This document shows, piece by piece, positions 1 to 64,000 of a DNA stretch of 64,000 nucleotides (positions are counted from its first letter, which is position 1; each line of letters opens with the position of its first letter). A program made the position numbers and the translations under genes. The notes under the pieces are model-generated. The model did no database searches. It was not told the origin of the DNA and saw only the letters and a list, made by a program, of their open reading frames with translations. Origin of the DNA: an uncultured Acidimicrobiia bacterium (lineage in GTDB: Bacteria; Actinomycetota; Acidimicrobiia; Acidimicrobiales; JACDCH01); the NCBI GenBank assembly GCA_963840695.1, contig CAWIZW010000012.1, forward strand, positions 86,010 through 150,009, given 5' to 3'.

Positions 1-1060
1 GCCCGACAGCCGCTTGAGGGTCGCCTCGGCCTCGGCGCGGATCCGAGCGAGGAGGTCGGCGACGGTCGGCACCTCGTCGACGACGCCGGTCACCTGCCCC
101 GTGGGCAGGATCCCGACCTCCGGGTCTGCCGTCGACCATCGTCGCCTTGATGAGCATCGGCGCGTTGGCCGCCAGGGCGACCTGGCTCCACGTCAGGTCC
201 TGGTTCCGCTTCATCGCCAGACCCTCACGGACGAGGTCGCCGAGCGGCGTGCCGGTCTCCTTGCGGAACCGCAGCGCCGCGGTCAGGGCCCGTGGGAACC
301 GGAGCAGGCGCGGGCTGCGCTCGATCCGGTCGACGACCTCGGTGCGGATGACCCGTTGCGGCGCGCCGTCGATGGCGGTGGTGACGACGGTGTCGGTCGG
401 GGTGGCGGCGAGGTACCGCGCCTTGACCACGTCCGGGACGCGGCTCTCCTGGGTCAGCAGGAACCTCGTGCCCATCGCCACGCCGTCGGCGCCGTAGGCG
501 AGGGCGGCGACGAGGCCGCGGCCGTCGAAGAACCCGCCGGCGGCGAGGACGGGGATCTCGGCGCCGACGGCGTCGACGACCTCGGGCAGCAGCAGCGTCG
601 TGGGTACGGCGCCGGTGTGGCCGCCGCCCTCGCCGCCCTGCGCGATCACGGCGTCGACGCCCATGGCGAGGACCTTCTCGGCGTGGCGGCGGGCGCCGAC
701 GGTCGGCATCACCAGCACGCCGGCGTCGTGGCACCGAGCCACGGCGTCGGCCGTCGGCGCCCCGGCGAAGCTGACGAGCTTCACACCCTCGCCGACGACG
801 AACGCGACGCGCTCGGCGAGGTCGGGCTGATCGGCGCGGAAGTTGACGCCGAAGGGCCGGTCGGTGCGGTCGCGGACCTCACCCACCTGCTGGCGCAGCT
901 GCTCGGGCGTCATGGTGACGGCGGCCAGGATCCCGAAGCCGCCGGCCGCGCTCGTCGCCGCCGTCAGCCGGGCGCCGGACACCCAGCCCATCCCCGTCTG
1001 CACGACCGGGAGCTCGCACCCCACGAGCTCGCAGAACCGGGTGCGCAACGGATCTGACAC
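1..1060 (-). pseudogene. Nitronate monooxygenase (NMO / 2-nitropropane dioxygenase family); 3' end runs off the window; one apparent 1-nt insertion near 131
   Basis: Own minus-strand translation from GTG 1060-1058 gives VSDPLRTRFCELVGCELPVVQTGMGWVSG...IAQGGEGGGHTG...AMGTRFLLTQES. The frame breaks after ...KATMVDG (ggcAgaccc, ~131). The conserved tail DPEVGILPTGQVTGVVDEVPTVADLL continues in another frame to the window edge. It is not in the ORF track because no stop lies inside the window. Confidence 0.85.
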
Positions 1061-1068
1061 GCCGTCAG
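1054..1068. promoter_or_regulatory. Candidate operator, CTGAC-N5-GTCAG palindrome (ctgacacgccgtcag)
   Basis: Both 5-nt arms are perfect. The site overlaps the GTG start (1060-1058) of the NMO gene. It belongs to a ten-site family in this window. Confidence 0.55.
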
Positions 1069-1253
1069 GTTAGAGCCGGACCTCGCGACCACGAAGTCCA
1101 ACCGTCGGGTCGGGGGTTCGATCCTCCTGGTCCATCGCGCGCACGCCCCGCGCCACCCCGAGGAGTTGATCAGAGCGCAGAGGGCTGTCTTCCGGTTTCA
1201 CAACCGGAGCGCACGGGCACGACTCGGCGCGTTGTCGAGCCTGGGAGGCACAC

Positions 1254-1919
1254 ATGACTGAGACATGGACGGGCGGGGCCGGCGACACCGGCACCGAGAC
1301 GGGGATGGCCTCGGAGGTGGCGGGCGCCGTCAAGGAACACGCCTCAGAAGTCGCGTCCGCCGGCGGCGCCGGCGTGCAACGCGTCGCCTCGACCGCGAGG
1401 GACGAGACATCCGCCGTCCTCGGCGACGTGAAGTCCCAGGCGCGCCGGGTCGTCGGTGAGGCGACGACACAGCTGCGTCAGCAGGGCGACGAGCAGCTCC
1501 ACCGTCTCGCCGGCACCATCGGCGAGCTGTCCCACGAGCTACGGCGCATGAGCGATGCCGGAGGCGACGGGCCGGCGGCCGGGTTCGCCAGCGAGGCGGC
1601 TTCGTTCCTCGATGGCTTCGGTGGACGCCTGGTCGACGGTGGCCTCGACGGAACCGTGGCCGAGGTGAAGCGCTTCGCCCGGAACCGTCCGGTCGTGTTC
1701 CTGGCGGCGGCCGTCGGCGCCGGATTCCTGGCCGGCCGTCTCGTGCGCAACGTCGACACCGAGCGTCTGACCGGGTCCCGGAACGACGTGGAGACGCCGT
1801 CCCTGCCCGTGGCGACGCCGACGCCGACGCCGACGCCGACGCTGTCCGGTGCTGCTTCGAGCCCCGGCGCCCTCCCGGCGAGCCCTGCTGGCCACCGTCC
1901 CGACGCCGGGATCGGCTGA
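1254..1919 (+). CDS. Hypothetical protein with C-terminal membrane anchor; first gene of a conserved actinobacterial three-gene set
   Basis: ORF track, 221 aa. GGGAGG lies 6 nt upstream of the ATG. It has a hydrophobic segment VVFLAAAVGAGFLAGRL and a low-complexity TPTPTPTP tail. Its stop overlaps the next start (ATGA-type, 1919). Confidence 0.6.
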   Translation: MTETWTGGAGDTGTETGMASEVAGAVKEHASEVASAGGAGVQRVASTARDETSAVLGDVKSQARRVVGEATTQLRQQGDEQLHRLAGTIGELSHELRRMSDAGGDGPAAGFASEAASFLDGFGGRLVDGGLDGTVAEVKRFARNRPVVFLAAAVGAGFLAGRLVRNVDTERLTGSRNDVETPSLPVATPTPTPTPTLSGAASSPGALPASPAGHRPDAGIG

Positions 1920-2335
1920 TGGCGGTGGATCGGGTCGACGATCCGACCCGCCCGCTCGAGCCCGACACGTCGCTGCCGGAGCTCCTCTCGCGTCTGTCCT
2001 CCGATTTCGGCGAGCTCGTGTCGACGCAGGTCGAGCTGGCCAAGGTCGAGATCAAGGAGGAAATCGCCCGGGCCGGGAAGGGCGCCGGCCTCCTCGGCGG
2101 CGGCGCCTTCGTCGGCTACCTCGCAGTGATCCTGCTCTCGTTCGCCGCCGCCTGGGGCTTGGCCGAGATCATGCCGGAAGGCTTCGCCTTCCTGATCGTC
2201 GGCGCCGTGTACGCGGTCGTCGCCATCGTCCTCCTGAGGACCGGGCGTGAGCAGATGCGTTCCGTGCAGGCCGTGCCGGAGACGACCGAAACCTTGAAGG
2301 AGGATGTCCAGTGGGCCAAACAACAGGTGAGCTGA
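1919..2335 (+). CDS. Phage-holin-family (Holin-X / DUF1469-like) membrane protein
   Basis: ORF track, 138 aa: ...LSSDFGELVSTQVELAKVEIKEE...GAGLLGGGAFVGYLAVILLSFAAAWGLAE...FLIVGAVYAVVAIVLL. The architecture, an amphipathic helix followed by two TM helices, is typical of the family. Confidence 0.7.
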   Translation: MAVDRVDDPTRPLEPDTSLPELLSRLSSDFGELVSTQVELAKVEIKEEIARAGKGAGLLGGGAFVGYLAVILLSFAAAWGLAEIMPEGFAFLIVGAVYAVVAIVLLRTGREQMRSVQAVPETTETLKEDVQWAKQQVS

Positions 2336-62594: not shown

Positions 62595-62738
62595 ATGATC
62601 GAACCCGAGGGAGATCCGGCCTGCTGGCTCGACCGGATCTGCGAGGAGTGCGGCGGGATCCTGGCGGCCGGTCAGGAACATCGCTGCGACGATCGACGCC
62701 CACGCGAGGCGGCGGCGGATCGGGAGTCCGACACCTGA
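62595..62738 (+). CDS. Small Cys-rich ORF (47 aa), below the ORF-track size cut-off
   Basis: Own translation: MIEPEGDPACWLDRICEECGGILAAGQEHRCDDRRPREAAADRESDT. It has a CxxxxxCxxC...C pattern, and its stop lies 5 nt before the next ATG. This is a weak call. Confidence 0.35.
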   Translation: MIEPEGDPACWLDRICEECGGILAAGQEHRCDDRRPREAAADRESDT

Positions 62739-62743
62739 GCGCG

Positions 62744-63622
62744 ATGCGTCGATTCGGTCGGGCCTCCACTTGGGCGCTCATGGCGGCGCTGGCGGTGGGT
62801 TGCGGCGACTCGGCCGACACGACGTCGGCTTCACCATCGCCGACAGCGCCGGCCGACACCGCGGCGGTCGAAACACCGGAGCCCGTCGGCGGCCTCCTCG
62901 CCACGATCGGGACCAACCGGCTCTACGCGCTCGACCGCGGGTTCGGGCTCGGGCTCCAGAACGTCGGCGACGAGACGGTCGCCGTTCGCGAGCTGCAGCT
63001 CGACTCGCCCCTGTTCGAGACGGTCCCGCTCGCCGCCGAGCAGGTCCAGCTCGAGCCGGGTGGCCGGCGGTTCGTGCTGCCCGTCCCGTACGGCGAGGCC
63101 CGCTGCGACGGCGAGCCCGCCGAGACCTTCGCCGCCGTGGTCGTCCTCGACGACGGCGAAGAGCTGCGGCTGCCGGTGGTCGAGGAGTACCCCGGTGCCA
63201 TCGGCCGAGTCCACCGGCGCGAGTGCGCGGCCGCGGATCTGCGCGAGCGGGTCGACATCCGGTTCGGCGACCGGTGGATCAGGCACGGCGACGCCGTCAG
63301 CGGCGAGCTCATCCTCGAGCAACTCCGTCCGGGCGACCCGGTCGCCGTGGAGGACGCCAGGGGCAGCGTGATATTCACCATCAGGGTCGACGACGCCGAG
63401 CCGCCGATCCTGCGGGTGACCGACGAGGAGCCGATGGCGAGCGTGCCGATCACGATCAGCGCCGACCGCTGCGATCCTCACGCGCTGGCCGAGAGCAAGC
63501 GGACGTTCATGTTCCTCACGTGGGTGACCGTCGGGGAGGCGGAATCCGTGCCGTTGGACCTGGAGCCGATGGGCGCCGCCCGCACCGCCCTGGAGGACGT
63601 GTTCGCCACCTGCGTCGACTGA
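62744..63622 (+). CDS. Lipoprotein, hypothetical
   Basis: ATG 62744 lies within ORF 62339..63622: MRRFGRASTWALMAALAVGCGDSADTT... (signal peptide plus LAVGC lipobox), followed by a 270-aa protein-like domain. Confidence 0.65.
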   Translation: MRRFGRASTWALMAALAVGCGDSADTTSASPSPTAPADTAAVETPEPVGGLLATIGTNRLYALDRGFGLGLQNVGDETVAVRELQLDSPLFETVPLAAEQVQLEPGGRRFVLPVPYGEARCDGEPAETFAAVVVLDDGEELRLPVVEEYPGAIGRVHRRECAAADLRERVDIRFGDRWIRHGDAVSGELILEQLRPGDPVAVEDARGSVIFTIRVDDAEPPILRVTDEEPMASVPITISADRCDPHALAESKRTFMFLTWVTVGEAESVPLDLEPMGAARTALEDVFATCVD

Positions 63623-63724
63623 GCGAGCGCCTCTCCGGGCATCGCGCGAGTCGGTCTCGAGCACTCAGTCGACGACGCCCGGCGTGCCTAGGCTGCGACG
63701 ACTTCGAGCCAGGGGGTGGCTGCG

Positions 63725-64000
63725 ATGTTGCGGACACAGCTGTGCGAGCTCATCGGGATCGACGTACCGGTGATCCAGGCCGGGATGAGCGTCTACACGT
63801 CGCCCGAGCTGGCGGCCGCGGTGTCGGAGGCCGGCGCGCTCGGTTCGCTCGGCGTCTGGCAACGGTCCCCCGATCAGCTCCGGGCCGCCCTCGACGAGCT
63901 GCGCGAGCGCACGGACCGGCCGTTCGCGCTGAACCACGTGGTGCCGGATCTCGACGAGGAGGCCTTCGCGACTTCGCTCGCGGCGCGACCGGCCGTCGTG
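63725..64000 (+). CDS. Nitronate monooxygenase (NMO family), 5' part only; continues beyond the window
   Basis: Own translation from ATG 63725: MLRTQLCELIGIDVPVIQAGMSVYTSPELAAAVSEAGALGSLGVWQRSPDQLRAALDELRERTDRPFALNHVVPDLDEEAF... It is a paralogue of the gene at 1..1060. Confidence 0.8.
   Translation, partial: MLRTQLCELIGIDVPVIQAGMSVYTSPELAAAVSEAGALGSLGVWQRSPDQLRAALDELRERTDRPFALNHVVPDLDEEAFATSLAARPAVV

Follow-up and report, generated by a model that had tools for sequence, protein, structure and literature searches.

Clustered single-base insertions in an Acidimicrobiales metagenome contig are probably errors of the deposited consensus sequence

The 64,000-nt stretch of DNA analysed here (the window) belongs to a high-GC contig of the Acidimicrobiales, and conserved proteins in it change reading frame again and again within some blocks and run uninterrupted through others. 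The question is whether these frame switches are mutations in the organism or errors in the deposited sequence. A Viterbi frame model built on codon usage and trained on Pfam-validated clean genes placed 148 same-strand frame switches in the window, and 121 of them were frameshift-like, that is, without a stop codon within 35 nt. The switch counts per kb were strongly over-dispersed (index of dispersion 3.2, chi-square p = 2e-16), and the longest stretches without events were 6.1 and 4.2 kb. The clustering is thus confirmed as an observation, in line with the sequence-only reading, which had counted well over 100 switches by eye and had named most of the blocks listed in Table 1. The 8.1-11.1 and 15.06-24.0 kb regions were clean as described; judged against the ORF list, the three switches placed in the latter are model noise, each a short segment near the end of a gene or in DNA with little coding. 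The 39.5-64 kb region was sparse, with slightly more switches than the dozen or so counted by eye, and no large deletions were found in the window. The named dense and clean blocks also held, except that 24.6-26.2 kb carries one insertion and that 0-4.8 and 13.8-15.06 kb, beyond the blocks listed by eye, are affected too.

Table 1. Segments of the 64,000-nt window, followed by the number of frame switches placed by the frame model in successive intervals
Segment	Position	Strand	Genes	Observation
Dense block	4841..7140		enoyl-CoA hydratase (-), then SDR, OB-fold protein, thiolase-like gene (+)	13 frame switches
Clean block	7141..11371		Zn peptidase, SDR, most of acyl-CoA dehydrogenase	0 frameshift-like switches
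Dense block	11372..14995		acyl-CoA dehydrogenase N-terminus, Y_phosphatase3, TetR, isochorismatase, CoA-transferase III genes	18 + 2 switches
Clean block	15063..24010		about twelve genes, including P450 C-terminal half	no frameshifts vs L083 (15970-18580) or gaps vs L081 (23436-24012)
Short dense patch	24011..24577	-	P450 gene N-terminal half	five 1-nt insertions
Clean but for one insertion	24578..26182	+	ABC1-kinase gene	1-nt insertion (A) at 24919
Densest block	26183..29883	+	ADP-forming CoA ligase, thiolase, OB-fold gene	64 gap openings in 3.7 kb vs L081
Nearly clean	29899..30877	-	amidohydrolase	single insertion at 30391
Dense block	30932..33976		end of amidohydrolase and two more amidohydrolase genes	18 same-strand frame switches
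Clean part	34126..34905	-	pyruvate kinase C-terminal part	no frameshift vs P0129 or L083
Dense block	34906..39396		pyruvate kinase N-terminal part, hotdog/PAS histidine kinase, SDR, thiolase-like gene	19 switches
Sparse region	39428..64000			about 15 isolated frame switches (frame model)
Frame-model interval	0-4.8 kb			6
Frame-model interval	4.8-8.1 kb			13
Frame-model interval	8.1-11.1 kb			0
Frame-model interval	11.1-13.8 kb			18
Frame-model interval	13.8-15.06 kb			2
Frame-model interval	15.06-24.0 kb			3, all judged noise
Frame-model interval	24.0-24.6 kb			4
Frame-model interval	24.6-26.2 kb			1
Frame-model interval	26.2-34.1 kb			40
Frame-model interval	34.1-34.9 kb			0
Frame-model interval	34.9-39.5 kb			19
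Frame-model interval	39.5-64 kb			15

Frameshift-aware protein-to-DNA alignment with intact proteins of close relatives, which had been proposed as a check, showed that the switches exist: 92 frameshifting indels were located in 13.3 kb, and the same type of alignment gave no frameshifts against L083 proteins in two control genes (15970-18580). Because the frame model detects only about 60% of the alignment-verified indels, the true total in the window is probably near 200 by extrapolation. The ADP-forming CoA ligase, the thiolase, and the OB-fold gene contain 26, 19, and 5 frameshifts, respectively. In the 11372..14995 block, alignment with L083 proteins gave 9, 10, and 5 frameshifts, comprising 22 insertions and 2 deletions. 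Additional frame changes were supported by tblastn near 6213 (with distant relatives), between 30940 and 32122, and at 40949.

The closest independent contig, L081 (8.3 kb, from JGI, seven intact genes, different strain), aligns by blastn to positions 23436-30880 with 93.2% identity and 80 gap openings; paralogous copies within the window are only 65-72% identical. The gap openings number 0 in 23436-24012, 1 in 24601-26182, and 64 in 26183-29900, and L081 has none of the indels. The ratio of indels to mismatches is 64:241 in the dense stretch and 1:46 in the adjoining clean stretch. Mismatch density in the dense stretches (6.0-6.5%) is about twice that in two clean stretches (2.8-2.9%), which speaks against an error origin, yet the nearly indel-free amidohydrolase (29901-30790) is equally divergent (6.2%, one gap opening). 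The two clean islands reported around this gene, 29.9-30.4 and 30.4-30.8 kb, are indeed separated by its one insertion. A database protein from a 328-kb contig (P0002, ABC1, 394 aa) is 100% identical to the translation of the window, and its relatives have about 490 aa. The shortening fits the insertion at 24919, so the truncation would reflect an error already present in the deposited sequence.

The edges of the blocks ignore gene limits, as had been noticed for pyruvate kinase and acyl-CoA dehydrogenase, and the P450 gene provides another case. In pyruvate kinase, alignments with P0129 and L083 placed 11 insertions (+12 nt) in 34906-35535 (about 630 nt at the start) and none in 34126-34905 (about 780 nt at the end), which matches the split seen by eye. 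The two independent references concur on the insertion sites within a few nt, and 251 of the 258 residues are identical in the clean part. The 12 extra nt are a multiple of three and the original frame is regained; an ORF finder therefore gives an apparently intact 488-aa protein (34123-35589) with a scrambled interior. The P450 gene is clean in 23435-24010 and has its five insertions in 24011-24576, where L081 and L083 agree at four positions and differ by 12 nt at the fifth (24527 and 24539); the insertions are seen in the DNA alignment too. In the acyl-CoA dehydrogenase gene, the frame model placed switches only at 11372 and 11435. The edge at 26183 is abrupt: the preceding 1,263 nt (24920-26182) have no gap openings, after which one occurs roughly every 60 nt. 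Together with the over-dispersion, these mid-gene edges show that the lesions are distributed by technical units and not by genes. In the OB-fold gene, a 296-nt patch (29626-29921) has only deletions and lies beside insertion-only patches, suggesting that the segments are of separate provenance.

The peptides between lesions had been described as conserved, and this proved correct. The corrected peptides of the dense blocks and of 1-1036, 13.9-15.06, and 40.0-51.7 kb were tested against Pfam, and end-to-end matches were obtained across the junctions, e.g. Isochorismatase 1-175/175 and DUF2332 7-334/334. Further matches were ECH_1 and adh_short_C2 (6-234/236) in 4841..7140, CoA_transf_3 (1-366/366, crossing junctions 14602 and 14995), Amidohydro_2 (12-289/289 and 2-289/289) in 30932..33976, and PK (2-328/328) and Thiolase_C_1 (1-134/144) in 34906..39396. 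Pfam domains also bridge the junctions 40915, 44889, 47197, 48636, and 51375 in the sparse region, and one oxygenase has its DIOX_N and 2OG-FeII_Oxy matches on either side of junction 42062. The ORFs in 7141..11371 gave full-length matches. The frame-corrected proteins are 91-97% identical to those of relatives (L081 proteins and P0129) over the full reference length. In split genes, the corrected scrambled halves have 92-93% amino-acid identity and the clean halves 95-97%, a level that genes with 10-26 neutral indels could not retain.

The scrambled genes bear a signature of purifying selection. Mismatches to L081 at the three codon positions are 27/17/85 in the CoA ligase and 20/16/46 in the thiolase, both in the dense block, and 10/3/26 in the clean ABC1 gene. 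The synonymous to non-synonymous codon changes are 71:48 in the scrambled CoA ligase and 44:27 in the thiolase, and the substitutions disrupting G/C runs comprise 20 synonymous and 4 non-synonymous ones.

The indel spectrum is strongly skewed. Insertions outnumber deletions 78:14 among the 92 alignment-verified indels (p = 6e-12), and bacterial mutation is deletion-biased. Of 33 1-nt insertions with clean placement, only 3 lengthen a base run, where 51% are expected by chance (p = 5e-7). All four bases occur among the insertions, and most inserted bases differ from both neighbours. Since they avoid runs, replication slippage is excluded as the source. Of the two lesion types described by eye, insertions of arbitrary bases are indeed dominant, and homopolymer deletions are a small minority. 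The errors are thus not concentrated in homopolymers, which argues for a near-raw or few-read consensus and not for polished residue. Lesion density correlates weakly with local GC (Spearman rho 0.37-0.46), and GC accounts for little of it.

From indels that are present, clustered, biased toward insertions, and run-avoiding, we infer a sequencing or assembly origin: with a probability of about 0.93, the frame switches stem from a faulty deposited consensus and not from mutations in the organism. The sequence-only reading had likewise judged uneven consensus quality more likely than gene decay, a preference supported by the selection signature, the protein conservation, the spectrum, and the mid-gene edges. 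No independent same-strain assembly free of the indels was found, the closest reference being 93% identical in DNA. The contig would be a mosaic in which accurate kilobase-scale stretches alternate with stretches containing about one indel per 50-80 nt, most indels being spurious single-base insertions, with hardly any additional substitutions. Such a mosaic most likely goes back to a metagenome assembly from noisy long reads whose errors were corrected in some segments only, be it through the read depth at each place, through polishing with short reads, or through hybrid correction; where correction failed, near-raw or few-read consensus would have been left.

Two routes to such a mosaic can be considered, of which we moderately favour a long-read assembly whose consensus or short-read polishing was effective only at adequate local depth or mappability, with coverage dropouts or mixed strains as examples of what could make it fail. 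In a published Nanopore soil metagenome including Acidimicrobiia, 70% of proteins were still truncated and many frameshifts persisted despite polishing with Racon, Medaka, and Pilon; the integrity of ORFs followed coverage (PMC8692599). The weakly positive correlation with GC is as GC-biased short-read depth predicts, although lesions are missing from 17-20 kb at a GC of 0.74 and sparse in 40-42 kb at 0.757, and although post-polishing residue is usually of the homopolymer-length type (PMC8812927). The other route, less probable, is hybrid assembly or scaffolding, with short-read contigs as the clean blocks and, as the dense ones, gaps closed by long-read sequence that was raw or drawn from few reads. 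The abrupt transition at 26183, the block sizes of 0.6-9 kb, and the separate error profiles of insertion-only and deletion-only patches would suit it. However, the isolated errors in clean blocks fit imperfect joins less well, isolated single errors as in the sparse region are unusual for pure short-read contigs, and N runs and lower-case marks are absent from the window.

Genuine decay, in which a catabolic island and neighbouring genes were pseudogenized by real indels, is very improbable. The genes are truly interrupted in the deposited sequence, and compared with L082 and L083, which are more distant relatives, part of the largest dense block (26.2-34.0 kb) is inserted and thus accessory DNA; however, another accessory stretch (18.6-23.4 kb) is clean, and the lesions cover one half of pyruvate kinase, a housekeeping gene, and end midway through it. 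Reductive decay with abundant pseudogenes is known from Mycobacterium leprae and recent host-restricted pathogens, and real decay is marked by relaxed selection, deletion bias, stop codons, larger deletions, and gene-by-gene lesions. Here, substitutions stay synonymous-biased, corrected proteins share 91-95% identity with those of relatives, genes have 10-26 indels without matching substitutions, the excess of run-avoiding insertions is opposite to the deletion bias, and no in-frame stops were placed in the corrected segments by the frame model, which penalizes them heavily. Still less probable is a very recent localized mutational process making the indels real, such as error-prone patch synthesis by a polymerase prone to +1 insertions; if true, kilobase tracts including half of pyruvate kinase would have been riddled before neutral substitutions built up. 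Recoding or editing, in which real extra bases are bypassed by programmed frameshifting or removed by deletion-type RNA editing, can practically be dismissed: the corrected products are intact and pyruvate kinase regains its frame, but the sites have neither a slippery nor a conserved motif in common, any of the four bases is inserted, every insertion is absent from the 93%-identical relative, whole multi-gene stretches are lesion-free, and we know of no such system in bacteria. Programmed ribosomal frameshifting and transcriptional slippage were likewise rejected, the sites being heterogeneous, outside runs, and missing in relatives.

The frameshift pattern contains no biological novelty, and as a consensus-error pattern its relevance would be as an annotation hazard only. 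Within the dense blocks, gene calls, pseudogene counts, completeness estimates, and pathway inference will come out wrong with any method that is not frame-aware. The search for unpolished tracts of this kind in other public metagenome contigs could be aided by the signature, which combines more insertions than deletions, inserted bases that differ from those beside them, rare substitution errors, and kilobase blocks with sharp limits.

Decay of the M. leprae type likewise leaves many genes frameshifted, but its marks are all missing from the window. Closer are noisy long-read assemblies (Nanopore, PacBio CLR) assessed with IDEEL or Kastor (PMC12007338, PMC8692599, PMC9262707), in which single-base indels also break conserved ORFs, frame-aware alignment recovers full-length proteins, and severity follows local data quality; pseudogenization of genes by long-read errors has been described (PMC12007338, PMC8812927). 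The errors typical of polished long-read assemblies affect homopolymer length (PMC8812927, PMC9262707), whereas most bases inserted in the window differ from the adjacent ones, and its errors lie in sharply bounded kilobase blocks and are not evenly spread. Incomplete short-read polishing or hybrid correction (PMC8812927) also yields a quality mosaic of corrected and uncorrected segments. The leftover errors described with Polypolish lie in repeats to which short reads multi-map (PMC8812927), whereas the dense blocks of the window consist of unique coding DNA.

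The DNA of the window has a GC content of about 72%, and ORF lists alone were useless here because long spurious ORFs occur in all frames at such a high GC content. Frames were assigned with a seven-state Viterbi model (six frames and a non-coding state, with a penalty for frame changes), using codon log-odds trained on 2,624 codons of Pfam-validated clean genes. The model found 148 direct same-strand frame switches across the window. Within 35 nt of 27 switches, the upstream frame has a stop codon; the other 121 are without one. Most of the 27 look like gene boundaries; several fall inside genes, where indels were confirmed by reference alignments. 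The switches per kb are over-dispersed (index 3.2, chi-square p = 2e-16), and their distribution closely matches the map of the sequence-only reading, which had divided the window into blocks dense in frame switches and blocks with few or none. The interval 15.06-24.0 kb, with three model switches (segments 47-100 nt long, located at the ends of genes or where the coding signal is weak), was counted as clean because these coincide with ordinary ORF ends. Since the model catches about 60% of the alignment-verified indels, extrapolation gives probably near 200 indels in the window.

Same-strand frame switches without a nearby stop codon, detected by the frame model in intervals of the window
Interval (kb)	Switches
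4.8-8.1	13
8.1-11.1	0
11.1-13.8	18
24.0-24.6	4
26.2-34.1	40
34.1-34.9	0
34.9-39.5	19
39.5-64	15

Homology led to the same picture. Colinear tblastn matches of stop-to-stop ORFs from 80 distant relatives change frame inside the dense blocks, and no frame change was found with the same relatives between 14.6 and 24.0 kb, where the matches covered 15-19 kb. By protein search, an ABC1 protein with 97% identity was identified, encoded by an independent contig from JGI (L081; 8,326 bp, seven intact genes). In blastn, L081 matched 23436-30880 with 93.2% identity and 80 gap openings, which fall in successive segments as 0 in 577 nt, 7 in 588 nt, 1 in 1,582 nt, 64 in 3,718 nt, and 1 in 890 nt; these counts recover the patch at 24.0-24.6 kb, the dense stretch at 26.2-29.9 kb, and, as clean sequence, the ABC1 gene and the islands. 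A single metagenome scan for an independent assembly of the same strain gave nothing closer than 80% identity. The frameshift-aware alignment to relatives that the sequence-only reading had proposed was carried out with a purpose-written protein-to-DNA aligner. The references were the intact proteins of L081, those of the contig of a more distant relative (L083; ABC1, P450, and pyruvate kinase about 80% identical to those of the window), and a 95%-identical pyruvate kinase (P0129), which was found by a search with an 860-aa query and compared at the protein level. The alignments contained 92 frameshifting indels in 13.3 kb, versus none in two control genes (15970-18580). For P450, two independent references put four of the five insertions at the same positions and the fifth 12 nt apart, and the eleven events in pyruvate kinase were likewise placed within a few nt by two independent references.

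The edges of the blocks ignore gene boundaries, as had been claimed, and lie inside at least three genes. They are located at about 7.14, 11.37, 15.0, 24.01, 24.58, 26.18, 29.9, 34.9, and 39.4 kb. All 11 frameshifts in pyruvate kinase, aligned to residues 1-483 of P0129, are located in 34906-35532, and none is found in the last 780 nt. The P450 gene is clean up to 24010 with five indels beyond, and the acyl-CoA dehydrogenase gene has frame changes at 11372 and 11435 only, close to the 5' end. In frame-corrected conceptual peptides, domains cross the junctions in the dense blocks, at several of the isolated events between 40 and 52 kb, and at 127, 14602, and 14995. As the 11 insertions in pyruvate kinase (34123-35589, minus strand) amount to 12 nt, the gene returns to its original frame, and among the ORFs this region is listed as one of 488 aa without interruption. 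A gene caller would therefore present an apparently intact pyruvate kinase, in which residues ~19-223 are largely scrambled.

The substitutions within the scrambled genes bear on whether the indels are real mutations or errors. In the two most scrambled genes, mismatches to L081 at codon positions 1/2/3 number 27/17/85 and 20/16/46, with synonymous to non-synonymous codon differences of 71:48 and 44:27; the corresponding values for the clean ABC1 gene are 10/3/26 and 23:12. G/C swaps account for over half of the dense-block mismatches, which is the synonymous change expected where G or C occupies nearly every third position. The third-position and synonymous bias indicates that the substitutions are ordinary divergence filtered by selection. 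Indel events and mismatches relative to L081 number 64:241 in a dense stretch versus 1:46 in the neighbouring clean stretch. Compared with close relatives, identity is 93% in the scrambled half of pyruvate kinase and 92% in that of P450, versus 97% and 95% in the respective clean halves; residues spoiled at the junctions explain much of the difference. Had a gene been disabled long enough to accumulate 10-26 neutral indels, much greater drift would be expected.

Base runs of four or more number 14 in the window and 30 in L081 over the same alignment (26183-29900), in which GGG and CCC codons of L081 correspond to GGC and CCG in the window. Substitution errors were rejected as the cause of the fewer G/C runs in the dense blocks, as the differences are synonymous (GGG>GGC, CCC>CCG). 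Twenty of the 24 substitutions breaking G/C runs are synonymous, and these changes look like real divergence in codon choice.

The indel spectrum also bears on the origin. Insertions outnumber deletions by 78 to 14 (p = 6e-12), and bacterial mutation is deletion-biased. Only 3 of the 33 one-base insertions with perfectly matching flanks repeat a neighbouring base, versus a random expectation of 51% (p = 5e-7), which excludes replication slippage. The cleanly placed inserted bases (23436-30880 versus L081) create a CpG in 21 of 33 cases, in the contexts C[g]C, A[c]G, T[c]G, G[c]G, and C[g]A; random insertion at the window composition is roughly estimated to do so in ~25%. This excess may be a basecaller- or consensus-specific signature. 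In the OB-fold (ChsH2-like) gene (29626-29921, plus strand), five deletions remove 7 nt and insertions are absent, and the adjoining stretches are almost purely insertional. Such a deletion-only patch beside insertional ones suggests that individual stretches have separate technical origins. The profile, with an excess of insertions and few substitution errors, recalls that of lightly corrected single-molecule reads.

The observation of frequent, clustered frame switches is confirmed, and selection, divergence, spectrum, sequence context, and patchiness all agree with uneven consensus quality, the explanation that the sequence-only reading had preferred over gene decay. We infer from this pattern that the indels are an artefact and not a biological feature, a conclusion that the evidence supports. 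The database protein P0002 (394 aa, 328-kb contig) is 100% identical to the window's translation; its relatives have about 490 aa, and its shortness fits truncation by the insertion at 24919. The error was probably already present in the deposited sequence. The contig may be a long-read assembly whose clean blocks were polished better than the rest, or the clean blocks may be short-read contigs with long-read sequence filling the gaps between them. Loss of coverage driven by GC was set aside as the principal cause, since local GC correlates weakly with lesion density (rho 0.37-0.46) and fails for 17-20 kb and 40-42 kb.

As for gene content, the ABC1-kinase protein is at most 67% identical to those of species-representative genomes, nearly all of them Acidimicrobiales or Acidimicrobiia MAGs. 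ORFs of the clean blocks gave full-length Pfam matches to Zn_peptidase, SDR, acyl-CoA dehydrogenase, luciferase-like monooxygenase, Amidohydro_2, AMP-binding, and ABC1. The genes in 1-40000 resemble a cluster for steroid or lipid side-chain and ring degradation: CoA-transferase subunits (3517-4836), enoyl-CoA hydratase, SDRs, acyl-CoA dehydrogenase, thiolase-like genes with OB-fold partners, AMP-ligases, several Amidohydro_2, a luciferase-like monooxygenase, and P450. Pyruvate kinase adjoins the ABC1 kinase in two more distant relatives (L082, 10001-12887; L083, 2389-5298), and about 8 kb separates the two in the window (26200-34000), encoding a CoA ligase, a thiolase, the OB-fold protein, and three amidohydrolases. 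The ABC1-proximal 4.6 kb is present in L081, the 97% relative, up to the contig end. By this gene order, the stretch appears to be a true accessory insertion. The largest dense block overlaps with this insertion, which does not set the block's edges. The acyl-CoA dehydrogenase and the downstream SDR (9628-11558, minus strand) are separate genes with an ATGA overlap at 10398-10401. Their best database matches (P0121-P0128, 52-67% identity) are single proteins of 550-708 aa from long ENA contigs with both domain sets, and could be real fusions or gene-call artefacts of other long-read assemblies. A protein search with a 1,244-aa query of frame-corrected dense-block peptides gave only three distant SDR fusions. 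A DUF222-family gene (45062-46300, minus strand), a type frequently associated with HNH endonucleases in actinobacteria, may contain a single frame switch near 45184, outside the Pfam match.

Gene products in the dense blocks should be called with frame-aware methods, and it should be kept in mind that some scrambled genes still appear as open ORFs. The usual errors of polished long-read assemblies are homopolymer-length errors (PMC8812927, PMC9262707), whereas the indels of the window avoid runs. In long-read soil metagenomes including Acidimicrobiia, Racon, Medaka, and Pilon left 70% of proteins truncated, and the integrity of ORFs followed coverage (PMC8692599); the window displays the same general problem.
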